A stretch of DNA of 64,000 nucleotides from Heterodontus francisci (lineage: Eukaryota): contig NC_090399.1 in NCBI RefSeq assembly GCF_036365525.1, positions 49,446,430-49,510,429 of the forward strand, written 5' to 3'. A model generated the notes under the pieces. It worked only from the letters and a program-made list of their open reading frames with translations, had not been told where the DNA came from and ran no database searches. Below, one piece after another: positions 1-59,418 of the stretch. Positions within the stretch are counted from its first letter, which is position 1, and each line of letters begins with the position of its first letter. Both the position numbers and the translations under genes were made by a program.

Positions 1-574
1 TAGCTACTGTCTCTGGACTGAGCTTTGCGGAAAACATTCCCTTTACTTTGAAAATGAACACCTGGAAATGGTTTACAACACAGCGTGGTTCTGCCATGTA
101 CAGACGCCCTCCACGAATTTACCTGTATTGGTCGCATACTTCTTCTTTGACATTACCTTAACACCATTACTACCATTTTTGCTCATCTTGCTGCTCAATA
201 TACTGACCATCAGGCATATCGTACGAGTCAGTAGAGTGAGGAGGGGACTTGGGGGAAATAATAATCACGAGGATCACAATGATCCAGAGATGGAGAACCG
301 AAGGAAATCCATCATATTACTGCTCGCCATCTCTAACTGTTTTATATTGTTGTGGCTGGTAACATCCGTACATTTCATCTGAACACACTTTGCAGGTATT
401 CGGTTTATATTCACAAATTACAATGATCCATTTACCAGCGTGGAGCACACTGGATATATGCTTCAGCGTTTGAGTTCATGTACAAACACATTTATCTATG
501 CAGTAGCTCAGGCTAAATTCAGAGAGGAATTGAAGAATATCGTTAAATATCCCTGCACTTTAATTATTATGTGA
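1..574 (+). pseudogene. GPR139/GPR142-like orphan class A GPCR, copy A1 (3' part of exon 2; pseudogene, window-truncated)
   Basis: Colinear and highly similar to 58845-59418. One A is missing at about 42 (CCC-TTTAC vs CCCATTTAC in copy A2), giving a frameshift. TGC(Cys) has become TGA at 380-382. The downstream frame continues through TM7 (LSSCTNTFIYAVAQAKFREEL) to the ancestral stop at 572-574. Confidence 0.9.
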
Positions 575-642
575 GTGATTTCACAAAATTGAAGCTCAAT
601 GTCATCTAATCTCAGCGCATTGATATAACATGTTTGTTTTCA

Positions 643-687
643 TCTTTCTATCTCTCTCTCTCTCTCTTTCTGTCCCTCTCTCCCTCT
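643..687. repeat. (CT)n microsatellite downstream of the GPCR stop; homologous tracts at about 41325-41352 and 59490-59535
   Basis: Directly visible TC dinucleotide run at a similar position after all three GPCR copies. Confidence 0.85.
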
Positions 688-1189
688 ACATGTTACTATT
701 TAGGAGAGCAAATTTACAGAAGGAAGGTCACATGACTGAATCCAGTTAAAGGGCTCCAGGGTGAAATTAATCTCGGGCAGGTGGCAGATCAATGTCCCGT
801 TCTATAATTTTTTCCATTGCATTCAATGCTGTAATATTTACATTTTGTGAGAGTGTGAAATTGGCGATGTATCAGATCGGTAACCCGTTGCACACCTCTC
901 CCAGTGTTCTTTTCCAATTGGCAGGGCAATCGGAAGCGATGCATAATGGCAACTGAGCCGATAGCACCTGTTAAACTCCAGCAAATGTTAAAGTTAGGAC
1001 CTTGGATAAAACGGACTGCCTTTCCACTATCCCACATCATACACCCGTGCCCAATACCAATTTACACCTATTGAGTTTCCAACTCTTTATTTAGCCACAG
1101 AAAATCCCGAAATAGTATCTTAATACACAGCTGAAACACACTAATATTGCAGACAATTACTTTCGGAGTGCACTGCTGTGTGAAAACAC

Positions 1190-1430
1190 GTCAGCCATTC
1201 TGCACTGACATCCTACAAAACAGTCATGTACAACTGTCTGGTCAAATGCAGTTGGGTGCTGAATGGAGGGGTAAGTTTGGTCAGAATGCTATTGAGAACT
1301 TGTTGCTTTTCTTCAAACGGCGCCATGGAAACAGACAGGTGGGATTTTGGTTTAATGTCTCACCAGAGGAATGACACCCTCCAACATTCATTCAAACCTA
1401 CCGGCATATTAATTTCATGAGACTCTCAAA
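1190..1430 (-). mobile_element. Ancient Deu-domain SINE remnant (AmnSINE1/SacSINE1-like)
   Basis: Reverse complement reads TTGGAGGGTGTCATTCCTCTGGTGAGACATTAAACCAAAATCCCACC...CCATGGCGCCGTTTGAAGAAAAGCAACAAGTTCTC, matching my recollection of the Deu core (GGAGGTGCCGTCTTTCGGATGAGACGTTAAACCGAGG...CCCATGGCACTATTTGAAGAAGAGCAGG). It recurs at about 15990-16110, 21165-21290, 41990-42120 and 60140-60270 as part of the duplicated unit. Confidence 0.6.
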
Positions 1431-1691
1431 GCGTTTCTCCGCACACAACCTCCATTTGAGACGGTATTTATGTACAACTGTACAGCCAGGCATTTTAATT
1501 TCCCACAAGTGATCAATACTTTTAAATATTGAAAATGTGTTGGGGTTGGAGAGAACGTTTAATAATTTTACAGAATAAGACGCATCTGGATGCTCACTAA
1601 GATCGTCAAGATTACTTTTAACATAATTCCAGAAAAATGTGGATTAAAATGTGGATATTAAAAATGAACAGATTCGAAGTCAGTTTTGAAT

Positions 1692-2100
1692 GGAGACGGT
1701 GGCTTAGTGGTGACATTATTGAACTAGTAATCCAGAAGCCCACGCTGATGCCCTGGTGACACCGGATAAAATCTCACCAAGACCAGGACAGGTGGTGGAA
1801 TTTCAATTCAATCAATTAATAATTTAAAACACTGGAATTGAAATCTAGTTTCATTAATAGTGCCATGAAACTTGCATCAATTGTCGTAAAAATCAATCTG
1901 GTTCATCAATATCCTTCAGGGAGGGACATATCTGCCATCCCACCTGATCTGGCCCACATGTGAGTTCAGACACAATGCCATACGGGTTTGCACACTGCCC
2001 TCTGAAATGGTCCAGCAAGTCACACAGTTGTTAAGTACAGTTAGAGATGGGCAACAAATGCTGACCTTGCCAGTGAAGCCCACATCCCATGAAAAACAAA
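1692..2100 (+). mobile_element. tRNA-derived SINE with LINE-derived 3' tail
   Basis: A-box-like head GGTGGCTTAGTGG and 3' end ...GCCCACATCCCATGAAAAA. Absent from the paralogous flanks at about 16365, 21555 and 42380; homologous insertion at 60547-60925. Confidence 0.8.
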
Positions 2101-2301
2101 TCAAGTAAGTGGGAGTGTTTCCTATGAAGCAACCCATCCGAGTGCTCCTTTTCTGGTTTTGATTTTGGGATACGTTTTGACCAAGGACTGGGGAAAACTA
2201 AGGAATTTAACGTGACACAGAACAAAAAGATGACTCTTGAGGCACTGTGTCGCTCCATCACTTGCTCCGAGGCAAAGTGCCTTTTTTCAGTGAGACATCA
2301 G

Positions 2302-5300
2302 CTCTTACCTTCTTGAGCGGAGAGGAGTGGGGCGGGCCTGTGGGGAGAACGACTAGAACGGAGCCTATAAATCGAACCTGAGGATCGAGGCCCAGTCTCT
2401 TACCTTCTGGGAGAGGAGTGGAGCGGACCTGTGGGGAGAACACCGAAAGCGGAGCCGAGAAATCGAACCCAAGGATCGAAGCCCAGTCTGTTACCTTCCA
2501 GGAGAGGAGAACAGTCGGACCTCTTGCAGCCGCTGGAGTTTTGAAAAGAAAAAGCGAACAGTGATGTCACATGCGAGCTGCAAGGTGATTGGTTGGTGAG
2601 TCATTGCTGTTTGGAAATAGCTCCAAAAAGCTGGGTAAGTATCTCAGGTAAGAAAAGGTTAAAAGTTTAAAGTTTCTTTCAAATATAGTAAGTAGTGTTT
2701 TTTGAGGGAGTTCTGTAGTAATGAGGACCAGAGAAGAAGGGCCCTAGAGTAACTGATATTATTGGACATTAAGATCTTCTGGAAGGTTTAATTTAATTTA
2801 CAGGGTTAAGTCATGGCAGGAGAGCTCAAAGCCGTGGTGTGCTCCTCGTGCTCCATGTCAGAAACCAGGAAGATTTCCAGTGCCCAGGACCAGCATATCT
2901 GCAGGAAGTGTATCCAGCTGAAGCTCCTGGAAGCCCGGGTTTCAGAGCTGGAGCGGTAGCTGGGGTCACTGTGGAGCATCCACGAGGTGGAGAGTATTGT
3001 GGATAACACGTATAGAAAGGTGGTCACACGGCAGTCTCAGATCCCACTGGCAGGAAGGAAATGGGTGACCACCAGGCAGAGGACTAGGCAGGCAGTTCAG
3101 GAATCTCCTGTGGCTATTCCCCTTCAAAGCAGGTATACTGCTTTGGATACTGTTGGGGAGAATGGCCTCTCAGGGGAAAGCAGCAACAGCCCAATTCGTT
3201 GCACCATAGTTGGCTCTGCTGCACAGAGGAGGAGTAAAAAGTGTGGGAATGCAATAGTTATAGGGAATTCAATTGTAAGGGGAATAGGTAGGCGTTTCTG
3301 TGGCTGCAAAAGGGACTCCAGGATGACATGTTACCTCCCTGGTGCTAGGTCAAGGATGTCTCAGAGCGGTTACAGGATATTCTGAAGGGGGAGGATGAAA
3401 GCTAGTGATCGTGGTACACATTGGTACAACCAACATAGGTGAAAAAAAGGATGAGGTCCTAATAGCAGAACATAGGGAGCTAGGAATTAAGTTGAAAAGT
3501 AGGACCTCAAATGAAGTGATCTCAGGATTACTCCCAGTGCTATGTGCTAGTCAGAGTCGAAATAGTAGGAGATATCAGATAAATAAGTGGTTGAAGAGAT
3601 GGTGTGAGGGGGAAGGTTTTAGATTCCTGGGGCATTGGGACCTGTTCTGGGGGAGTTGGGACCAGTACAAATTGGCAGGAACAGGACTGATGTCCTGGGG
3701 GAGGGGGGGAGGTGGTATTTGTTAGAGTGATTGGGGAGGGTTTAAACTAAAATGGAAGGGAAAAGGGAACATGTGGAAGGAGCCAGAGGAGGGGGGAAAT
3801 CAAAGACAAGAACAAAGACAGTAAGGGAAATAAGAAAAGTGATAGGCGGAGAGATCAAGGGCCAGAATCAAACAGGGCCACAGTGAAAATTAGTGGGAAG
3901 AGGAAAAGTAATGTTAAAAAGACAAGCCTTAAGGCTTTGGGCCTTAACGTGCAGAGCATTCACAATAAAGTGGATGAATTAATCATGCAAATAGATGTAA
4001 ACAGGTATGATATAGTTGGGATTACAGAGACATGGCTGCAAGGTGACCGGGAATGGGAAATGTACATCCAGGGATATTCAGTATTTAGGATGGACTGACA
4101 AAAAGCAAAAGGTGGTGGAGTTGCATTGCAGGGTAAAGAGGATACTAACGCAATACTGAGGAAAGATATTAGGTCTAACGATGTGGAATCTGTATTGGTA
4201 GAGCTGAGAAACACTCAGGGGTAAAAAACGTTAGTAGAGGTTGGCTATAGACCCTCAAACTATAGTTGTGATGTTGGGAATAACATTAAACAGGAAATTA
4301 GAGATACATGTGATAAAGGAACATCTGTAATTATGGGTGACTTTAATTGGCATATTCATTGGGCGAGTCAAATTAGTCACAATACCACAGAGGAGGAATT
4401 CTGAACTAATACATTGATGAACCAACTAGAGAACAGGCCATCCTCGACTGGCTATTGTGTAATGAGAGAGGAATAACTGACAATTTAGTGGTGCGACACC
4501 CATTGAGGATGAGCGACCATAATATGATAGAATTCTTCATCAATATGGAGAGTCACGTAGTTGATTCTGAGACAAGGTCCTGAATCTTAGTAACGGAAAC
4601 TACAAAGGTATGAGGTGCGGCTTGGCCATGACGAATTGGGAAATGTTACTTAAAGGGATGACGGTGGATAGGCAATGGCATACATTTAAAGAGCGCATGG
4701 ATGAACTGCAACAATTGTTTACCCCTGTCTGGCGCAAAAGTAAAACGGGAAAGGTAGCCAAACCATGGCTTACAAGGGAAATTTAAGATAGCAATAGATC
4801 CAAGGAAGAGACATATAAATTTGCCAGGAAAAATAACAGACCTGAGGATTGGGAGCAGTTTAGAATTCAGCAAAGGAAGACCAAGGGACTGATTAAGAAT
4901 GGGAAAATAGAGCATGAGAGCAAGGTTGCGTGGAACATAAAAACTGATTGTAAAAGTTTATATAGGTATGTGAAGAGAAAAATATTGGTGAAGACAAATG
5001 TAGGTCCCTTACTGTCATAGAGACATAGAATCGAACAGCATAGAAACAGGCCCTTCGGCCCACCACGCCCATGCCGACCACGATGCCGATCTGTACTAAT
5101 CCCATCTGCCTGCATTAATTCCATATCCCTCTATGCCTTGCTCATTCAAGTACCTGTCAAGATGCCTCTTAAACAGGGGAGTTTATTATGGGGAATAAAG
5201 AAATGGCTGACCAACTAAATGCATACTTTGGTTCTGTCTTCACAAAGGAGGACACAAATAACATCACAGAAAAGTTGGGGAACATAGGGTTGAGTTAGAG

Positions 5301-6954
5301 AGAGGAAGTGAAAGCAATCAGTATTAGTAGAGAAATGGTGCTGAGGAAATCGATGGGATTGAAGACTGATGAATCCCCAGGGCCTGATAGTTTGTATCCC
5401 AGAGTACTAAAGGAAGTGGCCCTAGAAATATTGGATGCATTGGTGGTCATCTTCCAAGATTCTATAGACTCTGGAACAGTTCCTACAGATTGGAGGTTAG
5501 CTAATGTAACCCCACTATTTAAAAGGGGAGGTAGCGAGAAAGCAGGGAATTATTGACAAGTCAGCGTGAGGTCGGTAGTGGGCAAAATTCTAGAGCCCAT
5601 AATCAAAGATTTTATAGCAGAGCACTTAGAGAACAGTGGTAGAACCGGGCACAGACAGCGTGGATTTGCCAAAGGGAAATCATGCTTGGCAAATCTACTA
5701 GAATTCTTCGATGATGTAACTAGTAGAGTTGATGATGGGGAACCAGTGGATGTGCTTTATTTGGTCTTTCAAAGGCTTTCGACAAAGTCCCACATAAGAG
5801 ATTAGCATGTAACATTAAAGCACATGGGATTAGGGGTAGTGTATTGCGATGGATAGAAAATTGGTTGGCAGACAGGAAACAAACAGTAAGGCTAAATGGG
5901 TCTTTTTCCGAAAGTCAGGCAATGACTAGTGGGGTACCACAGAGATCTGTGCTAGAACCTCAGCTATTCACAATATACATTACTGATTTAGATGAGGGAA
6001 CTAAAGGTAATATCTCCAAATTTGCAAATGACACAAAACTGGGTGGGAGGGTGAGCTGTGAGGAGGATGCAGAGAGGCTTCAGGATGATTTGGACAAGTT
6101 GAGTGAGTGGGATAATGCATGGTAGATGCAGCATGATGTGGATAAATGTGAGGTTATCCACTTTGGTAGCAAAAACAAGAAGGCAGATTATTATCTGAGC
6201 GACTATAAACTGAGAGAGGAGAGGATGCAACGAGACCTTGGTGTTCTCGTACACCAGTCACAGAAGGTAAGCATGCAGGTGCAACAGGTGTTAAAAAAGG
6301 GCAAATGGTATGCTGGCCTTCATAGCGAGAGGATTCGAGTACAGAAGCAGGGATGTCTTGTTGCAATTATACAGGGCCTTGGTGAGGCCACACCTGGAAT
6401 ATTGTGTGCAGTTTTGGTCTCCTTATCTGAGGAAGAATGTTCTTGCTGCAGAGAGAGTGCGGCAAAGGTTTACCAGACTGATTCCTGGGATAGTGGGACT
6501 GATGTATGAGGAGACATTGAGTCGGTAAGGACTATACTCGCTGGAGTTCAGAAGATTGGATAGGGAAGCTCATAGAAACCTATAAAATTCTAACAGTACT
6601 TGACAGGGTAAATGCAGGAAGGATGTTCCCAATGGTGGGGGAGTCCAGAACCAGAGGTCAAGGTCCAAGGATACGGGTTAAACCTTTCAGGGCAGAGATC
6701 AGGAGAAATTTCTTCACCCAGACAGTGGTGAGCCTGTGGAATTCGCTACCACAGAAAGCAGTTGAGGCCAAAACATTGTATATTGTCAAAAAGGACTTAG
6801 ATATAGGTCTTGGGTCTAAACGGATCAAAGGGTATGGGGCGAAAGCGGGAGCAGGCTACTGAGTTGGATGACAAGCCAGGATCATAATGAACGGCGGAGC
6901 AGACTCGAAGGGCCGAATGGCCTACTCCTGCTCCTATTTTGTATGTTGCTATGT
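2302..6954 (+). mobile_element. Apparently full-length but degraded CR1 LINE (5' UTR, ORF1 zinc-finger/leucine-zipper + SGNH esterase, ORF2 APE endonuclease + RT)
   Basis: ORF1 from ATG at 2813 (VVCSSC...HICRKCIQLKLLEARVSELE; VIGNSIVRG; VVHIGT). ORF2 fragments include ITETWL, SPGPDSLYPRVLKE, GVPQRSVL and FANDTKLGG. CR1 3' hairpin and TATGTT tail. Empty site in the paralog at about 61125-61135. Confidence 0.95.
5016..5172 (-). mobile_element. Short 3'-end CR1 fragment inserted antisense into the 2302-6954 CR1
   Basis: Reverse complement carries GTGGGCCGAAGGGCCTGTTTCTATGCTG and a CTATG-type tail. It interrupts the host ORF2 between GGTCCCTTACTGTCA and AAACAGGGGAG. Confidence 0.8.
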
Positions 6955-7109
6955 AACCCTGGGGCAGATTTAACATCACAGCTTTATAAAACTCAACCAC
7001 GGCACCTGCGGGATATTGAAATGCACTTAATTAATTAATTAATCTGGTATAATAATAATCATGAAACTACCGGATTGTCAGGGGAAAAAAACATTTATTT
7101 TGTTAGAAA

Positions 7110-7870
7110 GGGCTTGCTGAATTGAGTTAGAGGCTGTGGTCAACAAGGCTGCGAAGTCACTAACTGCAGATGCTGAAGGAGGAAGGTCGTGAGTATTTAG
7201 GATAATAGTGGTAGAACAAGCTGAGCTGGTGAAAGGAGCAGATGGTGCCAGATGACTATGGGGACAGATCAAGTTGAAATTGAGGGAAAGGGCCACATCA
7301 CCCACAACAGCTTGGGCTGCACAGTTGTTGGAAGGTGCAACCATGCAGGAAGGCTACAGTAAGAGGGAAGATATCATCACCTATGTGTCAAATTCGCAAA
7401 CAGGCCATGATATCAATGCAGTCGTCCTCAATAAGTTCAAGGGTATCAAGGGGTTTCTTGTAAGTGATTGGACGTTCTGGAGCCGAGGAGTAATGTTTGT
7501 TGATCAACTGACAGCGTCCAGCGGGTATCTACTGCGTGGGATGAGAGGATGGGAAGGCATTTGGCATGCTTACCCGGCAGTCCGCGTGCTAGGCGGGAAG
7601 ATTAATGAGAGAATAGGACAGGGGAGCGGTACGTGTGCTCATGAGACAGCAACTAGCGAATTGTCAGGCCTTCAGAGAATATAACCAGAGCTTAAGTGGG
7701 AATCTTTCACATTTTCAAGAGACCATCACATCCGGGATGTAGCAGGAGGGCAGGTCGTCCAGGAATAGGAAAGGAATGGGATAGGAATTAGGGTAAAGGA
7801 TGATCAAAGTACTGCCACTAGAGAAACCAACGGGAGGCACAACTAGTTAACAGAAAATTAAGGAGACAGG
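7110..7870 (-). mobile_element. Old LINE remnant (probably the 5' part of the L2 element shared by the repeat units)
   Basis: Homologous to about 17630-18110 and 45410-46140, which are contiguous with recognisable L2 RT sequence in the other units. Confidence 0.5.
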
Positions 7871-9290
7871 AGAGGATAACCTGAGGGGTAGAGAGGAAGG
7901 AAATATAAATAAGTGATAGAAGTGATAAGCTCTGGGCCGGAGAAGAAACTAAAATAAGCATGCAAACTGACATAGGTAAATTCAGATTGCATGTGCTTGG
8001 GCAAAGAATTAGGATAGGTATGAGAAAGATAAAGAGACACGAAGAGATAGATCAAAGTTACAATGAAAGGACTCGCTGTGGGATTAAGTTGGTTTGCTCA
8101 TAGAGTGCAGGCAGTTTGGACTACTGTCACACTCATGTCCAGATTCGGAGACAGGTGTGGAGGGCGAGTGAATGTGTTTGAGGTTCAGGGTATCAGTGGG
8201 CGCACAACTAGAGGTGTTGCTTTGGGAAATCGTTCCATTGGCAGGCAGCATGGACTGGATGTAAATTATGCACAGTTCAAAAAGGCATAATTTGATCTTT
8301 TGTCCCAACTAGCTCAATAAGACACATGCCAATTTCTACATCCACAGACGTGTATTCAGACCTGTTCTTCTTATCTGCTTATTCTTTTATTACAAAATTC
8401 CATCACAATTAACTGTCATTGTTTTGTTCTTCGTTAAAACAGAATTTATGTGCTCATATTCACCATTTCCACAATGGGATTCTGTTTGTCCCCAACATTC
8501 TGCCGTGAATGATATTTCTTCTTGGTCAACGGTCCTGTAATTGAATTTAAGGCCCTTTTCAATGTCAGTTGTTTATCCTCTCCAATGTTTTATCGAAAGC
8601 TTTTTCTTTTCTTTATTCATGACCTATTTTCGTGAGCTCTTGCTGAACAATGCAGTGGTACTACTGCATGCTTTCCAACGTAAGAGAAAGTCATTTCATT
8701 CGAATTGAACCAGTACAAGTATATTCATTTTCCTTCGATTTACAACTACCTTTAAATAATATAATTATATTTAGCAAATTCACAATACAACTACTTGAAG
8801 CTACACAATATACACGATAAAAATAATTATGCACCAAAATATTCTCCTCAATCCATACACGAGACAGTAAAATAGCAGATTGAGCACAACACGTCTGCAA
8901 ATTGTCCTTGTTAGAATGCAGGTCACTAGTTGAGGAGGCCATATCAGACGCAGCCATGACTACTTGGAATACATCCAGCACTTACAGGCACCTAGGGAAA
9001 GATCAGGTTTTTTTTCACTACTGTGATCAAATATTAATAGACAAATTATTTAATATCTAATAGATAGAGAAATAGCAGGGCTACTCCGACCTCTAGAGTG
9101 CACATTCTGTGATATGTGGGAACTCCAGGACACTTCGCATGTCCTGCATAAACATATGTGCAGCAGGTGTCATCAGTTGCAACATCTTGATTTCTGGGTA
9201 TTGGAACCTGAACAGTTGGCATCACTCTAGTGCATCCATGAAGTTGAGAGCATCACGGATAGCACGTTTATAGATGTTGTCACCCCATAG

Positions 9291-12200
9291 GGTGAGGAAA
9301 AGGGCTGCGGGGAGGATGAGCCAACTGACCACGGCACCGTGGTGCAGAGGCCATTCAAGAGGGGGGAGCAAAAAGACAAGTGGTAGTTATAGGGGATTCT
9401 ATAATTATGGGGATAGATAGAACCCTTTGCAAGCCGGATCGGGAGTCCCGCATGGTGTGTTGCCTGCCCGGTGCCAAGGTGCAGGACATCTCTGACCATC
9501 TTGAAAGCATATTGGAGCAGGATGGGGAGGATCCAGTTGTTGTGGTCCACGTTGGGACGAACAACATAGGCAAGGCTAGGATGGAGGACCTGTTTGGGGA
9601 TTATAAAGCACTAGGAACGAAATTAAGGAACAGGTCCTTGAGGGTCATAAGCTCCGGATTACTGTCCAAGCCACGTGCAAATTGGCTTAGGGATAAGAAA
9701 ATTAGGGAAGTAAACACGTGGCTAAGGGAGTGGTGTGGGAAAGCGGAGTTCCATTTCATGGGGCATTGGCATCAGTTTTGGAACCGGGGGGACCTGTACC
9801 GATGGGACGGTGTCCACCTGAACCGATCTGGAACCAGTGTTCTAGCGAAAAGGATAAATAGGGTGGTCTCTAGGACTTTAAACTAGTGACTCGGGGGGAA
9901 GGGAAAGGGAAAACGACAGGGAGTATGATGGTAAATAAAAAGGTAAACAGCAGGTTAACATGTGTGCAGGAGGGTTTAAGTTCGAGGCAGACTATGAAAG
10001 AAGCAGAAAGGAAGGATAACTCAGGAGTTACTATTAGAGATGTTGGAAATCATGAGGGTAAGAAAGCTAGCATAAAGGCACTTTACCTGAATGCTCGTAG
10101 CATTCGTAACAAGGTTGATGAGTTAACGGCACAAATCATCGCGAATGAATATGATTTGGTAGCCATTACGGAGACATGGTTACAGGTTGGTCACGACTGG
10201 GAGTTAAATATCCAGGGGTACCAGACTATTCGGAAGGACAGACAGGAAGGTAAGGGAGGTGGTGTAGCTCTGATATTCAAGGACGACATCAAGGCAGTGC
10301 TGAGAGATGATATAGGTTCTATGGAGAATGAGGTTGAATCTATTTGGGTGGAAATTAGAAACTCTAAGAAGAAAAAGTCATTGATAGGCATAGTCTATAG
10401 GCCACCAAATAATAACATCACATTGGGGCGGGCAATAAACAAAGAAATAACTAATGCCTGTAAAAATGGTACGGCAATTATCATGGGGGATTTTAATCTA
10501 CATGTAGATTGGTCGAACCAGCTCAGTCAGGGTAGCCTTGAGGAGGAGTTCGTTGAGTGTATCCATGATAGTTTTCTTGAACAGTATGTAATGGAACCGA
10601 CGAAGGAGCAAGCTATCCCAGATCTAGTCCTGTGTAATGAGACAGGAATAATTAATGACCTCATAGTTAGGGATCCTCTTGGAAGGAGTGATCACAGTAT
10701 GGTTGAATTTAGAATACAGATGGAGAGTGTGAAGATAAAATCCAATACCAGGGTCCTGCGGTAGAACAAGGGGAACTACAATAGAATGAGGGAGGACTTG
10801 GCTAAAGTAGACTGGAAACAAAGATTTTATGGTGGGACAGTTGACGAGCAGTGGAGGACTTTCAAAGCAATTTTTCAAAGTGCTCAGCAAAAGGATATTC
10901 CAGTGAAAAGGAAGGACTGGAAGAAAAGGGGTAATCTGCCATGGGTGTCTGAGGAAATAAGGGAGGCTATCAAATTGAAAGAGAAGGCATACAAAGTGGC
11001 CAAAAACAGCATGAAACTAGAAGATTGGGAAAACTTTAAAGGCCATAAAAAGAGCTATAAAGGAAAGTAAGATAGAACATGAGAAAAAACTAGCACAGAA
11101 TATAAAGACAGATAGCAAAAGTTTCTATAAATATATAAAACGAAAAAGAGTGGCTAAAGTAAACGTTGGTCCTTTAGAGGATGAGAAGGGGAATTTAGTT
11201 ATTGGATATGATGAAATGGCCGAGGCATTGAACAGGTATTTTGTATCGGTCTTCACAGTGGAGGACACTAATAAATTGACAAAGAGACGAACGTAGGTGA
11301 AGACCTGGAAACAATCATTATTACGGAAGAGGTAGTGTTGGGCAAGCTAATGGAGCTAAGGATTGATAAGTCTCCTGGCCCTGATGGAATGCATCCCAGG
11401 GTACTAAAAGAGATGGCGGGAGAAATAGCAGGTGCACTGGCGGTAATTTTCCAAAATTCGCTGGACTCTGGGGTAGTCCCAGCAGATTGGAAAACAGCAA
11501 ATGTGACGGCACTGTTTAAAAAGGGAGGTAGACAAAAGATGGGGAATTATAGACCGGTTAGCTTAACCTCTGTAGTGGGGAAGATGCTTAAGTCTATTAT
11601 CAAGGAAGAAATAGCAGGGCATCTCGATAGAAATTGTCCCATTGGGCAGACGCAGCATGGGTTCATGAAGGGCAGGTCATGCTTGACAAATCTTTTGGAA
11701 TTCTATGATGACATTACGAGCAAGGTGGACAATGGGGACCCAGTGGATGTGGTGTACCTAGATTTCCAAAAGGCCTTCGACAAGATGCCGCACAAGAGGC
11801 TGCTGAATAAGATAAGGATGCATGGCGTTAGGGGTAAAGTATTAGCATGGATAGAGGATTGGTTGACTAACAGGAAGCAGAGAGTGGGGATAAATGAGTG
11901 CTATTCTGGCTGGCAATCAGTCACTAGTGGTGTGCCTCAGGGATCGGTGTTGGGACCACAATTATTTACAATTTATATAGATGATTTGGAGTTGGGGACC
12001 ACGTGTATGGTGACAAAGTTTGCAGATGACACTAAGATGAGTGGCAGAGCAAAGTGTGCAGATGACTGTGAAACTTTGCAGAGGAACATAGATACATTGA
12101 GTGAGTGGGCAAAGGTCTGGCAGATGGAATACAATGTTAATAAATGTGAAGTCATTCATTTCGGTAGAAGTAACAATAAAAAGGATTCTTGCTTGAATGG

Positions 12201-24550: not shown

Positions 24551-24554
24551 ACTT

Positions 24555-28770: not shown

Positions 28771-28823
28771 CAACGTTTCTCATCGGTGTTTGAATCATAC
28801 AAAAGCTGCATTCACCTCACAAA

Positions 28824-49630: not shown

Positions 49631-49684
49631 GAATGCATCTCATCACTGTGTCAGTACACAAAGAGCTACCTTCACTGCTAGAAA

Positions 49685-49754: not shown

Positions 49755-51049
49755 GTAAGTTACAACCTATTATTCCTTGTATGTCAGAGTGTGACTGCAT
49801 ACGATTCTAATTATTGTCACTAAAATATTCAAAAAAATGTTGATACAACGTGCTCATCAAAGCCTGATATAAGAACACTTTATAGGTGAAATGCAATGCA
49901 CTGAGTAGCCAGTGACTGTCCCGCAATCTGATTCTTGTACTGAATTTGGGGAATTATAATTCAACTAATTTCAATGTGTAGTTTTCTTTTATTATCTTGT
50001 GTTAGTAGAGCGTCAACAGTTTGCATTTACATAGCTCCTTTAACGTATAATAATATCCAATGCGCTTACAACTACGTCCCCAATACAAAGTTTGAAATCA
50101 TACTATCTACAGTACACATCTTGTACAACTTCGTGGATTCCTTTCGCAAAGTTGAAAACAGAATGACTTTCCGTTGTCTCACATATCCTTTTAATGTAAA
50201 TGACCGCGTTTGTTTGTAATCATAGCTTTTTGTAAAGTAAAATGTTTTCATGCATTCCGAACGTTTGGGAAAGATGATGGAGCTGTTACTTTTAGCTAAT
50301 GGGTCGTGACAGGATGGTGATCTCTAAAATCATACTGCTGGAAAAGCCCCAATTTCTGTAGCAGCTGGTTGCTCAGAGGAACTAGAAATTCAAGAACGCA
50401 CACTCAATGATAACCCAACAAATTGTCGCTCATCCTTGTGCCACGACGATTATAATCCTGCCCAATGGGAAGCCCGATATATCAGAACGGTTTACCCTGT
50501 TTGATCAGTTTGCACTTCTCCTCCCTTTATTTTCGGAACCAGGGCAATGCCGTGGGAATCCTTAAGGGGAGGTGCCCTCCTGTTATATTCCCCAAATCAT
50601 TAATTAATATCTGGGACATTTCTTGATCTTTTAAGTAGTTTAATGCAGTGTACAACTTAACAATTTTATTTGCCATTCTTGTCTATTCTTTGCTGTTTTT
50701 ATAAAATTATGCAGCTTATAATTAGAGCCAACAGAGAAGGTTGGCCCCAGCTGTACAATCCGAAAAGATGTAATCCGCCTTACATATAGCATGGTACTGA
50801 GTCGCGAACAGATTCCAGTAAAAACATTGAATTAAATAGCTGTTAATGAAACGTGGACTGGGAATTTAAGACGGTTCGATGGCGAGATAAATCGGATACT
50901 TAATAAAGTTAATCGTGTTTGGTGCAAATTCGATATAGTCCATATATAGTCTAGATGTGAGTCAAATGAAACAAACCAGCATATGGTTTTAATATTTTAA
51001 CCCCTTTAATGTTCATGCGTTGTTCAAAATGTACAAATTATAATTCACG

Positions 51050-52010
51050 TCTACTACATAAACAATCGTTCAATAATTCTATTCGCTAGTAATGTGATGG
51101 ATGAGATTGTTAAAGGGGCGAATATTCTTTGGAGTCATGTGTGATAGTTTGAGTCATAAGTTGTTTTCTGCACAAAGGCAATGACGATACCTCGATTTCA
51201 TTCCAGTGGGGGTGAAAATCCATTTTCACATATCTAACATACAGCAAACAGTATCAAAGCCTTGCCAAACCCATTTGACAATTGGGGGAAATCTCGCATT
51301 TGGACGCAAAGCTCAGGCAACTGCTTTTGTTGGAACTCATCATTTCAAAGGGCAGTAGATTCTCCTGTTCTTTTATTGACAATTATTGTTGCATGGATAC
51401 TGCAGAAAAATCTGTTACATTGTTGTGGACCCAACTGTTTGCATTTCCCATTAAGTGAAACTAATCAGTTAATTGTCTCACCAGTCAGATATTGCTTGAT
51501 GTCACATTTACCACTGCCCTGAAACTGTAGCTCATTGGTTGCCATGAATTCATGCATGTTTAGGAAAATTCCAGTGTTATGTTCTCCACAAAGCGAGACC
51601 AAAATTCCAGCTTTTTTTCCATCAATTCAATTTTGTCCTGGGGATTGACCCTTGAAGTATTAAGTTTAGCTGATTCAGGCGAGTGAATATATCTAACAAG
51701 TAGCCCAATGGTGAGGCCGTGTCATGCAGAGACTGATGTCGTGGAAAGGTGTGTTCTGTAAAGAATAACCTTGAGTTCAGAGTGAAGTTCAAAGAAACGT
51801 GCCCAGAAAATATCCTGGAATTCAAGGCTCGAACTTTTTCTTTCGAAAGCTTATCATCTGCATGGCATTTTGCAGGATCTCCTCCGAGTTGGTAGGCATG
51901 TTTAAAGCAGTGAGTGCATCCCTATGCACACGGCACTACACCCACCTTGAATTGGAAGTGAATGCTTTTATATGCCTTGCTATTCCATTGTGCCTAGCAG
52001 TCATTGACGC
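51050..52010 (-). mobile_element. hAT (Charlie/Buster-type) transposase remnant, paralog of 29780-31170
   Basis: LGYLLDIFTRLNQLNLILQG in ORF 51622-51825. Colinear with the copy B intron but without the HE1 insertion. Confidence 0.75.
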
Positions 52011-52704
52011 GAGCTGTAATAACTCAGGAGTTCTCCGTATCTGGAGATGTACACGGAACACATGAGGCAGCCAACACTTACTGAACCTTTAGGCAGCTTC
52101 CAATGCGACTGCGTTACTTCAAAAGCGGCCCAGATCATGACGATGATGTCACACCAATCTTAGCCGTGTTTTTTTTTTGGTATATCCGGAACTTCAGAGA
52201 CCTCTCATGCGATTCACTGCCAAGTCATCTTATTTTAGGCTGCTGTAATGTCCACAGGACTCCGTGTTAGAAAGGGGAACGCCGACCTGGATGACCAAAC
52301 TATTGTGCTGAGCAGAGTCTCAGATTGTGTATTTTTTTCAATTGAATTTCTTTTGAATCAAGCTTCCGAAAACATTTGTGAGAGTTGATTTCTGTAATCT
52401 GACAATTTCCATCACCAAAGGAACTGATCTCAAAGACGTCACTGATTGATGTGTTTATAAATTTGATATGTAGCATTTTGAAAAATAGTATGTCGTCTTT
52501 AAAGCTAGTCCGTTAATCTTTCCCCAGTGGATACATTGCTGCTGTGCGATTGTTGGTGGATTATTAGCTGCATCAGTCTGTCCCTGTCCTTTGATGCAGC
52601 CACAGTAAGAATTATTTACATTGTTCAAGTACGCCTTTGGGGGCAAGGAATTAATAGTCAAAGTGTTTTGAACAAGGAAACCAAACTATCAACAACAACA
52701 TGTG

Positions 52705-52960
52705 TTACTATAGCGCATTTAATGTAATAAAATGGATACAAGGCGCTTCACAGAAGCATTAAGGAGATGTTAAGTCAGTTGACCAAAGCTTGGTCAAAGA
52801 GGTAGATTTTAAGGAGTGTCTGAAAGGAAGAAAGAGAGACGGAGACGTGCAGGGAGGGAATTCCAGGGCTCAGAGCCTCCGCAACTGAAGGCACGGCCAC
52901 CAACGGTGGAGGGACTTAAATGGGAATGCTCGGAAGGCCAGAATTAGGTGAGCACAGACC
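52705..52960 (-). mobile_element. L2 3'-end fragment
   Basis: AAGGCGCTTCACAG...GACCAAAGCTTGGTCAAAGAGGTAGATTTTAAGGAG...GAAGGCACGGCCACCAA, similar to the L2 ends at about 22660 and 43460. Confidence 0.7.
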
Positions 52961-55900
52961 AAAAGTGTTTTTTGGTCAAAGGAACGAACTTCCGCCTCTT
53001 AAATATTAATAGTCAAATTCGGAATTCTTGCATTTTTAAATAAGACATGTTGCCCAATTCAGGATCTTTAAAGGCGCAAAATGCTGTGGATGCCAGTGAA
53101 TACGCCATGATTAGTTTGGAGTCGACAAGCCAAAGGAGTGCGTGAATCACATGTCAGCATCATGTAAATAAAAAGGAAAAAGCCGGTTGTACGTGTTTTC
53201 TTTATTGATCAGTACTTTGATTACCCAAAAACAATCAAATATCAGAACATGTCCTGTCCCAATTAGCTCAGATAATTGAAGCTCCGCTACATCAAAGAGT
53301 GTTACTGTTCAGTGGCACTGTTTGAGACCGGACAAACCAATACGCACTAATTAGATCTCACCCCGTCCCCCAGCTCCATAAAATAAAATTGCAGATAGTA
53401 AGCATTGTCAATAATATTATATGGCACATTCCTCAGGATGCCAGCTATATTTCCGTAACATTAGCCAGTAATCCAAGCGTTTGAGTGGTGTTTATGGCAA
53501 AGTTCAACACCGCTGAAGCCAGCCTTTGCAATTCAACCCCTCCCGCAGGGGCTGTTACCGCATAATGAAAAAAAATCTCTGCATGATAAATCGACATACT
53601 AATTAATATGGACAATAGATCAATAATAATGGCAAACTAATGTTATGTTTTAATGTTAGGAACTACCTATATTTTGGTGATCCAAACTTGCAGAAACTGT
53701 CCTATAATTATGGACCGTTTACATTTGCAATAATTTCATTATAAAAGCTACAAAGTTAAATCTTGATCTGATGATGTGGCAGATTAGGCGCATTTTCATT
53801 GTTTCCCACTATATTTTTTGTTTAAGGAAATAAAGTGAAAGCAAATTGACTCGGTTCCTTTTGTAAAACAACTTTTACTTGATAAGTGCAGTTCTATTTC
53901 AACAAAACAAATAATAAATCACCGAATTCTTGCTGCAAGTCAAATGAAACGATTTAAATGAGACTTGTCACCCAATTCAGGGTCATTAAAGGGGCAAATT
54001 TCTGTGCATGCTGGTTTGGAGTCTAGAATTTAGCCAAGGGAATGTGTGAGAACGGTTGGAGGAGAGGAGCAAGAGGATCCACCGCCATTTCACAATTTCT
54101 TCAGCGTATCCCCCAGGGATGTCTCACGTATCCCCCAAAAGCACACGTATCACAGTTAGGGAACTGCTGATTTAGACTAACTGTGGAATGTTTACACAGT
54201 TGATTCCACACGCACTTCAGATATATTCTACCACCTGCATTAGTATTTTGCAATGTTATGAATACCGATTCATTGGTTGATTCATTGATTTTTTGATCCT
54301 GTGATTTCAGGATTGATTAATTCATTGGGACAGTTTTGAGATCGGTCTATCGCGTTAGATGAGCGACTTCGGATCATCGTTCTACATTGCTCCCGATATA
54401 TATTTACTTTCACTTCAACAGAAAGGAAATTCGGGAGAGAATGTTAATGGGCAGCTGAGCACGTATCTCCCGTATTACACTATTCTCCATGTTCACATCT
54501 CTCCCGATTTTATTTCCATTGCAGTACCTGGAAAGGAAAATGGCGAGAGATGCAAAAAGGGCTGTCTACTCACTGTCATCCATTTTTACTATGTCAAGAA
54601 GACAGGATCGACCCTCTTGTCATTTCAGCTTACTTCTTACTTCTTACCATCCTTATAAGGATGGTGCCGTAACCTGTCTGATCACCGCATTGTATGTGCA
54701 GCGCCCAGTTACCTGGGAAATATCACTCCGTTCTGCAGCAGTTACTTATTTTTCAAGTAACATCAACTGGAGGAGGTTTCACATCGGCTGCTGAATCACT
54801 ATGAGCAGGTGTGGACCTACCGCCCGAGACCAATTTTGCCCCATGACCCGAAGCAAAAGGATACCGAATTGAACGACTGCACAGAAAGATCTGCATTTAA
54901 TTTCCATATAAGATATTCTCAAACGGATTACTCCCGTTAAAGTGAACTGGAAACAGCTGTTTGAAGATAAATCTGTACCTAATCAGAGGGAGGCATTCAT
55001 GGAAAATCGTCAGAGTTCAGAGCAAGATGTGCCCTAAAGAAAAAGGGTGGCACGAACAATTACAGAGACTCCTGGATGTCAAGGGGCTTAAAACAGAAAA
55101 TAAAGAGAATAAAAAGAAGCTTGTGATAGGTACAGAGGCCTCAATACTTCATAAAAAGTAGGGAAGTATAAAAATGTAGAAAGCAAAGAGAGGGCATGAA
55201 AATATATTGGCAAATAAAATCTAGGAAAACGCAAAGATTTTGCATAAATACATAAAAATCAAGAGGATAACTAAAGAATAGGGTCGATTGGAGACCATAG
55301 GTGTAATGTGTGTGGAGGCGCAGGATGTTAATATGCTTCTTAAAGAATACCTTGCGACTGTTTTCAGAAACGAGAGGGACGACACACATATTGCAGTCAC
55401 GGAGGAGGAGCGTGCAAAATTAAATGAAATTAACATAGTGAGGGAGGAAATCTTAAGGGGCTTAACATCTTGAAAGTGGATAAATCTCAATTCCCGGCCC
55501 AAACGTGTCCTAGACTGTTGAGGGACGGAACAGAAGAAATAGTGGCGGCTCTAACCATCATTTTCCAATCTGCTCTGGTTACAGGTGTGGTGCCAGAGGA
55601 CGAGAGGACAGCTGACGTTGTACTATTGCGTAGAAAGGGAGAAAGTGACAGGCCAAGTAAATGCAGGCCAGTCTGCCTATACTTGGTGATGGGAAAAGTA
55701 TTGGAAAAATAATCCGAGGGACAGGATAAATCTTCATGGGTGTTCCCATGCATCTGCTGCCCTTGTCCTTCTAGGTGTAGACGTCGCCTTGGTGCATTGC
55801 TGCAGTGCATCGTGTAGATGGCAATGATTTGTAACGCGAAGGTCGTTTCTGACGAACATGATTGAATTTTCTGATGCGGTAACACGGAGTGTTGTTGATG

Positions 55901-56574
55901 GCAGTGCGATAAATGTAGACTCAATGCATTTTGGCAAGGCTTTGATAAAGTCCCACATGCAGACTGTTCACGAAAGTAGAAGTGAAAATTTGCGTCCAAA
56001 ATTGGTTCAGAGGCAAGAAGCAAAGCATGATGGTGGATGGATGTTTTTAGCAACTGGAAGGCTGTTTCCATTGGAGTTCTGCATGGCTCAGTACTTAGCC
56101 CTTGCATTTGTGGTGTATATCAAAGATTCGGATTGGAATGTAGGAGCTATGATTATGAAGCTTACAGACGATACAAAAATTGGGCACGTGGTTGATAATG
56201 AAAAAGTAATTTATCGACTGCAGGACGTTATCATGGACTAGTCACGTGGTTGGAACAATGGCAAATTGAGTTCAATTCGGGGAGGTGTGAGGTGATGGGA
56301 AAGGCTACCAAGGCAAGGGAATACATCATAAGTGACAGTATATTGTCTAGTGTAGAGTAATATGGGAACCTTGGAGAACCTGAAGGTGGCTGGACAAGCA
56401 GATAAGTTAGTCAAGAAGGCGTACTGGATACTTGCCTTTATTAGCTGAGGCATAGAATATAAGAGCTGGGAGGTTATGCTGGAACTGTATAAAACACTAG
56501 TAAGGTCATAGCTGGAGCACTGCGTGCAGTTCTGGTCACCGCACTTGACAGGATAGTGAGGACATATACAACGA

Positions 56575-56715
56575 TACAAAAGCAAAATATGGCATTTGCT
56601 GGAAATCTGAAATAAGAACAAGAAATGCTGGAAATGCTCAGCAGTATGACGTTCATGAGAACAGGCCTGAAATGTTTTCTCTGTTTTTCTCTCCACTGAT
56701 GCTGCCTTACCAGAC
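56575..56715. mobile_element. Short Penelope terminal-repeat-derived element
   Basis: AAAAGCAAAATA...GCTGGAAATCTGAAATAAG...AAATGCTGGAAATGCTCAGCAG is the reverse complement of the Penelope end at about 58120-58188. Confidence 0.65.
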
Positions 56716-56905
56716 TTACGAGGATATTGCCTGTGCTGGAGAACTTTGTTTATCAGGAAATTGCACAGGCCATGGTTGTTTTCTTTGGAACAGAGGAGGC
56801 TGAGGGAAGACGTAATTGAAATATATAAAATTATGAGGGAGCTAAATAGAGTGTACAGGAAGGCCCAATTCCCCTTACTTGAGGAGTCCATTTCATTGAT
56901 TTATG

Positions 56906-58188
56906 CTCTGCTCTGCATCTGCTCTGCTGAGCCACCTTCCATGACGGTGCTTCTGGAATGACCTCCGTTTTCCTCAACCAAGGATTCCCCCCCCCCCCCC
57001 ACCATTGTTTTTGACAGTGCCCTCAACCATGTCCGGCCCATTTCCCGCACATCTACCCTCACCCCTTCCCCTCCCTCCCAGAACTGTGACAGGGTTCCCT
57101 TTGCCCTCACTTTCCACCCCATCAGCCTTCATATCCAAAGGATCATCCTCCACCATTTCCGCCACCTCCAGCGTGATGCCACTACCAAATGCATCTTCCC
57201 CTCCCTTCCCCTGTCAGCATTCCGAAGGGATCGTTCCCTCCGTGACACCCTGGTCCACTCCTCCATCACCCCCACCACCTCGTCCCCGTCCCATGCAATC
57301 GCAGGAGGTGTAATACCCGCCCATTTACCTCCTCTCTCCTCACTATCCCAGACCGAAACACTCCTTTCAGGTGAAGCAGCGATTTACTTGTACTTCTTTC
57401 AATGTATTCTGTATATACTGTATTTGCTGCTCACAATGTGGTCTCCTCTGCATTGGGGAGACCAAACGCAGACTGGGTGACCGCTTTGTGGAATACCTCC
57501 GCTCAGTCTGCAAGCAGGACCCTGAGCTTCCGGTTGCTTGCCATTTCAACACTCCCCCCTGCTCTCATGCTCACATCTCCGTCCTGGGATTGCTGCAGTG
57601 TTCTAGTGAACATCAATGCAAGCTCGAGGAACAGCATCTCATTTACCGATTAGGCACACTGCAGCCTGCCGGACTGAACATTGAGTTCAATAATTTCAGA
57701 GCATGACGGGCCCCCTATTTTACTTTTACTTTTAGATATTTTTTCCTTTTTCTTTTTTACATTTTTTACAATTTTTTTCTTTTGTTTATTTCATTTCATT
57801 GTAGTTTGTTCAGTTTCCGTACCCACTGCTTTTTTTCATGTTTGTACTTGCTGCTGCTCAATCTTCAGTTCGTTAACACCCTATCTGTCCTAATGCTTTG
57901 TCTTTCAACACACCATTAACATATTGTTTACCTTTGCTCCATGACCTCTTGGTCAGCTATGTGGCCTTGTCCAATCTACACCTTCTCATTTGTTAACTCT
58001 TGCCGCACCCCCGGCTCACTTGCTTATAACCTTTAACATTTCTAATATTTGCCAGTTCCGGAGAAGGGTCACTGACCCGAAACGTTAACTCTGCTTCTCT
58101 TTCCACAGATGCTGCCAGACCTGCTGAGTGGTTCCAGCATTTCTTTCTTTTATTTCAGATTTCCAGCATCCGCAGTATTTTGCTTTTA
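56906..58188 (+). mobile_element. 5'-truncated Penelope-like retroelement (GIY-YIG endonuclease + terminal repeat)
   Basis: ORF 57371-57706 has CIYCICCSQCGLLCIGETKRRLGDRFVE...VACHF...EEQHLIYRLGTLQPAGLN. Perfect 13-bp TSD TCATTGATTTATG at 56893-56905 and 58189-58201. Confidence 0.9.
58053..58092 (+). ncRNA. Degenerate minimal hammerhead ribozyme motif in the Penelope terminal repeat
   Basis: AGTT-CCGGAGA-A-GGGTC(ACT)GACCC-GAAACGTT-AACT: flanking stem, CUGANGA-like core with two substitutions, stem II, GAAA and palindromic AACGTT. Confidence 0.55.
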
Positions 58189-58522
58189 TCATTGATTTAT
58201 GGTCCGTGGTAGGAGGCTTAGAGGGGATTTATTCACCCAGAGTGAGATGGGGATCTGGAGTTCACTACCTAAAATGATGGTAGAGGCAAAACACCAAATA
58301 ACATTTTTAAAAATTGCTTGGATATGCACCTGATGTGCCATAACCTATGAGGCTACAGAACAAGAGCTGAAAGTGGGACTAGGCTGGATGGCTACTTGCA
58401 GGCCGATGTGGAGACGATGGGCCGAATGGCCTCAATTCGTGACGGAAATTTCAATGATTCCATGACTCCGTGAATTGAGTGTAATTATTATTTTTTTTAC
58501 ATTTATTGTCTTTTTTTTCTAG

Positions 58523-59418
58523 GTAACCTATTGGCGATTGTGATTCTCTCTCGCGGGAAGTGCGGACTTTCTAAATGTATCACTCGTTACATGGCGGCCA
58601 TGGCAGTGGCAGATCTACTGGTGATAATATTTGATGTAATATTGTATGAGATTAACGACATTTATTTCTCCTATTCATTCTTGGATTACACGCCCGTTTG
58701 CAGTCTCAATAACGTCTTGATTTTTGTAGCCCTTGATTGTTCTGTCTGGTTAACTGTTGCCTTTACCTTTGATCGATTCATCACTATATGTTGCCAGACG
58801 GTGAGGATAAAGTATTGCACTGAAAGAACGGCGGCCATAGTTATAGCTACTGTCTCTGGACTGAGCTTTGTGGAAAACATTCCCATTTACTTTGAAAGTG
58901 AACACCTGGAAATGATTAACAATACAGCGTGGTTCTGCCATGTAAAGTCAACCTCCACGAGTTTACCTATATTGGTTGCATACTACTTCTTTGACATTAC
59001 CTTAACACCATTACTACCATTTTTGCTCATCTTGCTGCTCAATGCATTGACCATCAGGCACATTCTACGAGCCAGTAGAGTGAGGAGGGGACTTCGGGGA
59101 AACACTAATCATGGGAATCACAATGATCCAGAGATGGAGAACCGAAGGAAATCCATCATATTACTGCTCGCCATCTCTAACTGTTTTATATTGTTGTGGC
59201 TGGTAACATTCGTACATTTCATCTGCACACACTTTGCAGGTATTCCGTTTATGCTCACAGATTACAATAATCCATTTACCACCATGGAGCACACTGGATA
59301 TATGCTTCAGCGTTTGAGTTCATGCACAAACACATTTATCTATGCAGTGGCTCAGGCTAAATTCAGAGAGGAATTGAAGAATATCGTTAAATATCCCTGC
59401 GCTCTAATTATTAAGTGA
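58523..59418 (+). CDS. GPR139/GPR142-like GPCR copy A2, coding exon 2 (321 aa with exon 1)
   Basis: TTTTTTTTCTAG acceptor at 58511-58522 followed by GTAACCTATTG (G-N-L-L). Open frame with the same TM motifs as copy B. Confidence 0.9.

Follow-up and report, generated by a model that had tools for sequence, protein, structure and literature searches.

The 64,000-nt window analysed here, taken from the horn shark Heterodontus francisci (RefSeq contig NC_090399.1, positions 49,446,430 to 49,510,429), carries two intact genes for class A G-protein coupled receptors (GPCRs), designated B and C, and one broken copy, pseudogene A. Database comparisons support the assignment of these genes to a very large, multi-chromosome, birth-and-death receptor repertoire of chondrichthyans, and the pattern of variation among the horn-shark members suggests that they form a ligand-diversifying repertoire that is larger than the 20-62 olfactory genes known from cartilaginous fishes. 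On the sequence evidence, we lean towards the view that the family is a chemosensory repertoire of sharks and rays.

Size and distribution of the receptor family

When clusters formed at 90% identity were searched at the protein level, 2,652 clusters among 4,927 candidates matched at E<=1e-5. An organism name was available for 117 of the 120 best-listed clusters, and all 117 are from sharks, rays or skates, mostly under the name 'probable G-protein coupled receptor 139'. A profile built from 35 diverse members identified 2,379 clusters at E<=1e-50 among 8,000 candidates scored, and each of the best 120 profile matches was chondrichthyan. These family totals (~2,400-2,650 clusters) may take in some amphibian or bony-fish relatives and mis-modelled genes.

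By a hand tally of the matches listed, H. francisci has at least 79 distinct clusters on 20 contigs, with 41 on the 74.5-Mb chromosome that includes the window. The horn-shark clusters hold ~132 member sequences, some of which are haplotig duplicates, and our guess is that the true copy number is several hundred. Near-identical recent copies were common in the family, with clusters of 8 and 13 members. A capture-recapture estimate of family size was rejected, since the match lists are ranked and not random.

All of the 10 divergent representatives looked up, including one from Callorhinchus milii, were chondrichthyan (one via a named cluster member). As the C. milii member is nested inside the family, the expansion predates the split between chimaeras and elasmobranchs. 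A preliminary description of the window had proposed a clustered and pseudogenised receptor repertoire, which the horn-shark tally bears out, and had called it lineage-specific, which does not hold for the horn shark or this array, as the family is pan-chondrichthyan. The trees place B and C together beside other horn-shark copies, and the pair appears to be a recent local duplication on an old subfamily common to sawshark, catshark, skates and rays.

Variation in the ligand pocket and conservation of the signalling face

Ballesteros-Weinstein numbers were anchored on gene B, and the alignment was divided into 35 pocket, 59 other extracellular-half and 103 cytoplasmic-half positions, where the pocket is a general class A consensus set written down after part of the column table had been seen. 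The mean site rates for these three groups were 1.38, 0.91 and 0.46 among 80 horn-shark paralogues (pocket versus other extracellular positions, p=0.016), 1.38, 0.98 and 0.45 among 45 Heptranchias paralogues, and 1.28, 0.72 and 0.31 within one 42-member subfamily. The order was reversed in 22 orthologues of an amphibian relative described below (0.19, 0.52 and 0.60), and the reversal between paralogues and orthologues was significant in an interaction permutation among 94 extracellular sites (p=2e-4). The 80 paralogues carry 79 distinct pocket signatures, and the variable sites coincide between two species (Spearman 0.86). As wrong first exons in public models inflate the control sites in transmembrane helix 1 (TM1), the pocket test is conservative.

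The pocket is hence variable in paralogues and conserved in orthologues, the orthologue side being significant in the amphibians and not in the subfamily that includes B and C. That subfamily (11 sequences from sharks, skates and rays) keeps most pocket residues, which is what one would expect were every subfamily to maintain a ligand of its own. Within the window the variation is weak. B and C differ at 8 pocket positions (of 35) and at 14 (of 59) in the rest of the extracellular half, against 10 (of 103) in the cytoplasmic half (omega 0.31 vs 0.24). The variable ligand-facing segments reported in the preliminary description are therefore a feature of the family, in which the pocket is the fastest part, more than of the window.

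The two intact proteins match Pfam 7tm_1 (E 1.6e-21 and 1.6e-22), and the AlphaFold model of exon 2 of gene B is a confident class A bundle (predicted local distance difference test 90.6) of seven helices, with the N1.50, D2.50, R3.50, P5.50, W6.48 and Y7.53 motif columns. The cytoplasmic face is conserved in intracellular loop 1 (ICL1) and in the DRF-ICCQ, DPEM-NRRKS, NTFIY and KFRE motifs, with many of the motif columns showing no variation across all 80 paralogues, and a disulfide pair between C3.25 and extracellular loop 2 (ECL2) is present in 79-80 of the 80. Fold comparison gave a match to the NPY receptor Y4R (Z 24.4, root-mean-square deviation 3.6, 268 aligned, with many ties), and the top 50 rows, which are peptide and amine receptors and do not include GPR139, tie within ~1 Z. 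Fold comparison was dropped as a means to place the family, as such ties carry no ligand information.

Five conserved cysteines lie on the cytoplasmic side of B and C in ICL1 and ICL2 (residues 37, 42, 113, 114 and 122), several of them invariant or nearly so in the 80 paralogues, and these are a possible palmitoylation or metal site.

Relationship to GPR139, GPR142 and other receptors

An exhaustive search of 50%-level representatives gave 114 matches at E<=1e-30, and the first full-length matches from outside the sharks were from a salamander (32% identity, 143 bits), a coelacanth (125 bits) and a teleost (107 bits), followed by anchovy, amphioxus and invertebrate receptors. A search with the salamander gene found one cluster each in 20 amphibian species and one in a sturgeon, and then 4 shark proteins (25 matches from 1,675 candidates), and none of the 25 matches was from an amniote or a teleost. 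This amphibian/sturgeon orphan (P0224, XP_069092602.1; P0276-P0295) is conserved, apparently single-copy and mis-named GPR139. It has N2.50 instead of D and a GPR139-like pocket, with F3.33, W6.48, P6.50, K6.51 and N7.39 kept in 22 of 22 amphibian orthologues.

In an IQ-TREE analysis of 50 rows, which included no GPR139 or GPR142, a single clade with support of 99/98 united the 5 amphibian/sturgeon rows with 33 from the shark family, of which 26 have a confirmed species, and the coelacanth/teleost, anchovy/bichir and amphioxus clades stood apart from it. The sharks formed one group versus the amphibian gene in 38% of bootstrap trees, and the amphibian/sturgeon gene is predicted to be either sister to the shark family or nested at its base.

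Among receptors with solved structures, human GPR139 scores highest with both family profiles (61.9 and 83.7 bits), but it ranks below all 19 non-shark orphans (89-260 bits), which had been chosen as top matches and are favoured by that choice. With the family profiles, amphibian orphans scored 188-260 bits, coelacanth orphans 200-226 and invertebrate ones 89-127, and those from teleosts and amphioxus also exceeded GPR139; GPR142 was not scored. The residues of the GPR139 pocket for Trp and Phe are F3.33, H5.43 (H187), W6.48, R6.51 and N7.39 (PMC5430874). The corresponding residues are V, D, W, T and Y in gene B and F, D, W, T and Y in gene C, and among the 80 paralogues F3.33 is kept in 29, H at the H187 position in 3, W6.48 in 80, R or K at 6.51 in 1 and N7.39 in 6, while P6.50 is kept in none. 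True GPR139 is a two-exon gene with 70% identity between human and zebrafish (PMC7318219), and the presence of at least 79 clusters in one species does not fit a single-copy, strongly conserved gene. Given the pocket residues and the profile scores, the database name is a label for the nearest human match, and the family members appear not to be orthologues of GPR139 or GPR142. The preliminary description had termed the genes GPR139/142-like and had doubted that they were ordinary GPR139. The doubt was justified, since W6.48 is the one GPR139 pocket residue that all 80 paralogues retain and the orphans outscore GPR139. The likeness is right in that GPR139 is the nearest human receptor, but the nearest relatives are unnamed non-mammalian orphans (amphibian/sturgeon and coelacanth/teleost).

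Placement in the wider GPR139/142/'GPR210'/FMRFaR-like superclade agrees with GPR139 being the best human match, with the motifs in TM2, TM3 and TM7 and with the FMRFaR-like neighbours; Atlas neighbours of the family include FMRFamide-receptor-like/Srw clusters. None of 104 aligned proteins matched Pfam 7tm_4, V1R, TAS2R or 7tm_3 at E<=0.001, and one matched Srw (row 88, a teleost outgroup, in the amphioxus-free set). TAAR, FPR and MRGPR receptors were not found among the best 60 of 114 solved-structure matches of the family profile.

In salamander, coelacanth and bichir, alternative gene models part from each other at one shared residue ahead of N1.50. A phase 1 intron just before N1.50 is also what we take to be the position in GPR139. 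The divergence of the alternative models implies that a two-exon design is probably ancestral to the wider clade and not specific to the array.

Genes B and C

A six-frame scan of the window revealed two long GPCR-like frames at ~40.3 and ~58.5 kb, plus a broken frame at the window start. First exons were sought as ATG-to-GT phase-1 exons with a hydrophobic end, and two of the 14 candidates within the window were of 70 nt, followed by a GTAAGT donor, and located in mutually homologous DNA. The first (28824-28893) is exon 1 of gene B, encoding the N-terminus and the first half of TM1, and is separated by a phase-1 intron of 11,415 nt (28894-40308) from exon 2 (40309-41228). The second (49685-49754) is exon 1 of gene C, followed by a phase-1 intron of 8,768 nt (49755-58522) and exon 2 (58523-59418). 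The acceptors at 40309 and 58523 were the only two of six AG acceptors tried near the exon-2 starts that gave an open reading frame (ORF) of >40 aa. Splicing predicts class A GPCRs of 329 aa (B) and 321 aa (C), with N-termini that resemble those of database relatives and that are very short (N1.50 is residue 25) with no N-glycosylation sequon. All of these features, and the pseudogene, upstream regions, flanks and relics described below, are on the plus strand.

The arrangement seen at first, of three same-strand paralogues, two intact once spliced and one dead, is thus confirmed, as are the very short N-terminus and the phase-1 intron, which is present in both B and C. The identical 70-nt exon 1 was established for two of the three copies, the first exon of copy A falling beyond the window edge.

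B and C share 80% aa and 86% nt identity (dS 0.36, dN 0.10), and an omega of 0.28 shows that they are under purifying selection. Gene B differs from its own subfamily at pocket sites Y2.65, M3.29, T3.32 and V3.33, and the Trp that 78 of 80 paralogues keep ahead of TM5 is missing from it, departures that would reflect either a new specificity or early decay.

Exon 2 of gene B is 100% identical to the H. francisci NCBI protein XP_067865183.1 ('neuropeptides capa receptor-like'). However, that model omits the exon at 28824 and takes as first exon a reverse-transcriptase fragment (38584-38640) of a long interspersed nuclear element (LINE), so the public model of gene B is wrong at its start. The family-type exon-1 pattern was likewise unmatched in 28 of 79 horn-shark public models. 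P0396 was considered as the correct model of gene B and rejected, as it is a 93% paralogue located outside the window.

Pseudogene A, gene-less relics and repeats

Pseudogene A (1-574) is the 3' part of an exon 2, from TM4 to the C-terminus, cut by the window edge. It is broken by a 1-nt deletion after nt 41, which shifts the frame, and an in-frame TGA at 380-382, and retains the original stop codon at 572-574. It is closest to gene C (dS 0.10, omega 0.67). The 3' flank of this unit (575-9037) is 89% identical to the flank of gene C over 575-2301, matches the distal flank of gene B over 6989-9037, and is split by a CR1-type LINE at ~2.8-7.0 kb.

Gene B is preceded by an upstream region (27697-28823) homologous to that of gene C (48425-49684), with a TATAAA at 28753 in B and 49613 in C, 71 and 72 nt before the ATG, respectively. 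The 3' flank of unit B (41229-48424) completes a repeat unit of ~20.7 kb (27697-48424), and the 3' flank of unit C spans 59419-61759. The intron of gene B contains LINE fragments and shares colinear blocks of ~74-76% identity with that of gene C, into which a 3.5-kb retroelement has inserted at ~54941-58469. Across introns and flanks B and C are 74-77% identical, and no special promoter or flank conservation was found, as the proximal 330 nt are 76.5% identical compared with 74-77% in the intron and flank blocks. An identical run of 21 nt covers the TATA box, but neutral blocks have runs of 20-21 nt, so it is not significant alone. Judged by the usual patterns for such sites, the 500 nt upstream of B and C lack O/E-type sites and show no consistent occurrence of TAATGA, and an Rfam gathering scan of the whole window gave no matches.

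Two units had been described as gene-less, and both are present, at 15962-18113 and 21168-24360. They are not whole units, however, each being a copy of the 3' flank alone that lies behind a LINE fragment and begins ~0.7-0.8 kb beyond the expected position of the stop codon. Neither a permissive blastn search, with probes for both exons, nor tblastn detected any trace of an exon or promoter in them. The second relic is 76% identical to the flank of gene B over 2.7 kb. Over 830 columns the two relics share 91% identity, and they may therefore be one relic duplicated once; both gene loss and duplication of one relic are plausible origins.

LINE-derived coding remnants account for 16.2 kb or more of the 64-kb window, and the other long frames scanned were LINE remnants. 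Two minus-strand LINE copies (18109-18660 and 25405-25957) are 97.8% identical over 553 nt, which points to recent retrotransposition into both gene-less relics. The LINE copy at 18108-20293 has an open endonuclease-reverse transcriptase frame of 583 aa, and a near full-length CR1-type LINE at 9329-12809 has a GDSL-esterase ORF1 and a broken endonuclease-reverse transcriptase ORF2. Tandem repeats of 91 nt and 96 nt and a C-rich low-complexity tract occur at 2319-2509, 35047-35274 and 62060-62363, and the C-rich tract directly precedes an endonuclease-coding retroelement at the window end. The turnover of the window consists of duplication of a ~20-kb unit, LINE insertion, LINE-associated loss and pseudogenisation.

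The accession numbers of clusters P0004 and P0322 (XP_0678652xx), which belong to two different subfamilies, interleave on the same chromosome, hinting that a two-gene unit has been amplified near the window. Several public models (P0164, P0207, P0241, P0301, P0130, P0205 and P0234) fuse family members to sodium channel, integrin alpha-X-like, uromodulin-like D8C, TRIM, hemopexin, trypsin or Ig domain sequences, and these are probably annotation artefacts that mark the neighbourhoods of the clusters.

Possible roles of the family

The family probably descends from an ancient orphan of the GPR139/142/'GPR210'/FMRFamide-receptor-like branch, an orphan of which amphibians and sturgeon still have what appears to be a single copy. 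If the family is chemosensory, small polar compounds such as amino acids, short peptides or derivatives would serve as ligands, with each paralogue or subfamily binding different ones, because the clade from which it descends senses aromatic amino acids and also peptides (PMC7318219; PMC12208981), and all paralogues would signal via one shared G-protein pathway. The ligands would be external to the animal and would be read out by chemosensory cells, the likeliest site being the microvillous neurons of the olfactory rosette, or else taste cells, solitary chemosensory cells of skin or gill, or gut cells.

Besides the size of the family and the contrast in pocket variation, a chemosensory role is favoured by observations on the shark nose. 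The 20-62 known olfactory genes of cartilaginous fishes coexist with many neurons (PMC10869828), and seven catshark probes label 0.45-5.94 cells/mm each in an almost continuous neuron monolayer (PMC10116579), densities that by our own addition sum to 12.6 cells/mm. So few labelled cells in a near-continuous layer would leave room for other receptors, although in situ sensitivity could also explain the difference. Related invertebrate branches have also expanded as candidate chemoreceptors, and in Aplysia 29 of 90 such candidates score best as Srw (PMC3963977). It is conceivable, though rather doubtful, that the family is a further vertebrate olfactory receptor (OR) family, recruited from the GPR139/FMRFamide-receptor-like branch before the chimaera/shark split, the largest of the shark nose and outnumbering the V2Rs.

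Several findings weigh against a chemosensory role. Positive selection was not detected between B and C, with omega <1 in eight of eight segments, and in the 11-member B/C subfamily, with site rates of 0.60, 0.68 and 0.71, the pocket is not significantly slower (p=0.64). The definition of the pocket, written down after a view of part of the data, also belongs here. Gene C found no exact match, with a best identity of 82% among the stored matches, and may be unannotated in NCBI or simply absent from the matches returned. As the NCBI model lacks the true exon 1 of gene B and gene C has no exact match, the public models do not attest a spliced transcript. The searchable parts of the supplements of four shark papers (PMC8455134, PMC11589584, PMC10529500 and PMC11406177) do not mention the family, and no GPCR is among the 50 most abundant specific genes of catshark brain and olfactory epithelium (PMC11979771), a list that is uninformative for sparse receptors. 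The shark nose has been explained by V2Rs in Go/TRPC2 neurons (PMC10116579), and shark OR, ORA and TAAR genes are expressed mostly elsewhere than in the nose (PMC11979771). The same sequence signature would also fit immune or barrier sensors.

A repertoire for immune or barrier surveillance resembling FPR and MRGPR, in which the receptors would sit on leukocytes, mast-like cells or nociceptive endings and sense peptides that come from microbes, parasites or damage, is an unlikely but credible alternative, since clustering, pseudogenes and pocket diversification would be equally expected. The ancestral clade binds peptides besides amino acids (PMC7318219), some shark OR genes are expressed in the spleen (PMC11979771), and cartilaginous fishes reportedly lack MAS1-related receptors (PMC8455134), so that an FPR/MRGPR-like role is left open. 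TRIM, integrin alpha-X-like and Ig-domain genes adjoin the family in three of 26 long models, but the other fused neighbours (sodium channel, trypsin, hemopexin and uromodulin-like) are non-immune, and the retention of subfamily pockets over the long divergence of sharks and rays would be slower than typical host-pathogen turnover. One supplement (4,750 characters) of the nurse shark spleen paper PMC10529500 does not mention the family, a weak test.

It is improbable that these are receptors for diversified endogenous or conspecific peptides, of neuroendocrine, seminal or pheromonal function, like the MIP, sex-peptide and FMRFamide receptors of invertebrates. GPR139 does group with MIP/SPR, proctolin and FMRFamide receptors (PMC12208981), the C3.25-ECL2 disulfide pair is nearly universal, and the fold matches include peptide receptors, but at tied Z scores of ~24 that carry no ligand information. 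Such receptors normally hold the pocket fixed, as the amphibian gene does, and we know of no matching expansion of peptide genes.

Slightly less probable still is a largely neutral drift of copy number in LINE-rich, duplication-prone regions, with most copies redundant or silent and the pocket varying through relaxed constraint. The LINE content of the window (at least 16.2 of 64 kb), the one dead gene in three, the two units without a gene, the near-identical recent copies (clusters of 8 and 13) and the alteration of gene B at conserved sites such as the Trp before TM5 would all be consistent with drift. It is opposed by the omega of 0.28 between B and C, the many motif columns of the cytoplasmic face without any change among the 80 paralogues, the subfamilies common to sharks, rays and chimaera, and the variation of the same sites in two species (Spearman 0.86). 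Finally, ordinary GPR139/GPR142 duplicates sensing L-Trp or L-Phe in brain or gut are very improbable, as true GPR139 is conserved (PMC7318219), the amphibian, coelacanth, teleost, amphioxus and invertebrate orphans all outscore it, and R/K6.51, N7.39, H at the H187 position and P6.50 are nearly or wholly lost from the 80 paralogues, notwithstanding the shared two-exon structure and the status of GPR139 as best solved-structure match.

Novelty and significance

No paper on a chondrichthyan GPR139-like expansion was found in the open-access literature, and the accessible parts of PMC12294341 and PMC10620051 contain nothing on one. The novelty lies in an unrecognised family rather than in unseen sequence, since the proteins are public under a wrong automatic name, and in a birth-and-death repertoire from a GPCR branch without a known expansion of this kind in vertebrates. 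Cartilaginous fishes have been described as GPCR-poor (PMC8455134) and, despite large olfactory organs (PMC10116579), as the vertebrates whose olfactory repertoire is smallest (20-62 genes; PMC10869828), and at least 79 members in one shark already overturn this picture of paucity for class A receptors.

If the family is sensory, it would be an independent invention of chemoreceptors from a peptide/amino-acid receptor branch that has also expanded in nematodes and molluscs, and if it is immune it would be the shark counterpart of the FPR and MRGPR sensors. Were the olfactory reading true, the 'tiny olfactory repertoire' of sharks would be an artefact of seeking OR, TAAR, V1R and V2R genes alone. 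The analysis also exposes a conserved amphibian/sturgeon orphan, the ligand of which would point to the ancestral function.

Comparison with known systems

The closest relative outside the chondrichthyans is the amphibian/sturgeon orphan (Pleurodeles XP_069092602.1, 'probable GPR139'), which shares with the shark family a short N-terminus, the DPE...RRKS motif before TM6 and, from the alternative models, the same exon junction. Unlike the shark family, it is represented by one cluster per species, its pocket is 96% identical in pairwise comparison, and P6.50, K6.51 and N7.39 are kept. Orphans beside GPR139/142 in coelacanth, gar and teleosts have been named 'GPR210A/B' by Rinne et al. 2019 (PMC6504862), in a survey of 5-8 genes in all that, in its accessible text, covers no chondrichthyan genome ('shark' has 0 occurrences). 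The coelacanth/teleost and anchovy/bichir clades probably correspond to 'GPR210A/B', although the ids ENSLACP00000014196 and ENSLACP00000015589 were found neither in the accessible supplement of PMC6504862 nor among the sequences collected.

Human GPR139 and GPR142 resemble the shark family in the S-x-W-x-T-V...DR end of TM3, the N-x-x-x-Y without proline in TM7 and the two exons, but are single-copy and highly conserved, with key pocket residues that the sharks have not kept. The C3.25/ECL2 cysteine pair of the shark family is missing from the aligned GPR139.

Vertebrate chemoreceptor and sensor repertoires generally evolve by birth and death. The shark family is like the OR, TAAR, V1R, T2R, V2R, FPR and MRGPR families in that its members lie in clusters on many chromosomes, include pseudogenes and have bloomed in particular lineages, and in the short N-terminus and the fixed signalling face with a variable pocket. 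It differs from the vertebrate chemoreceptors in belonging to another GPCR lineage (none of 104 proteins with 7tm_4, V1R, TAS2R or 7tm_3) and in having a coding intron in TM1. The srw receptors of nematodes are related to FMRFamide receptors. Together with the candidate chemoreceptors of Aplysia (PMC3963977), they are also expansions from the FMRFamide/peptide-receptor neighbourhood, but independent of that in sharks and rays.

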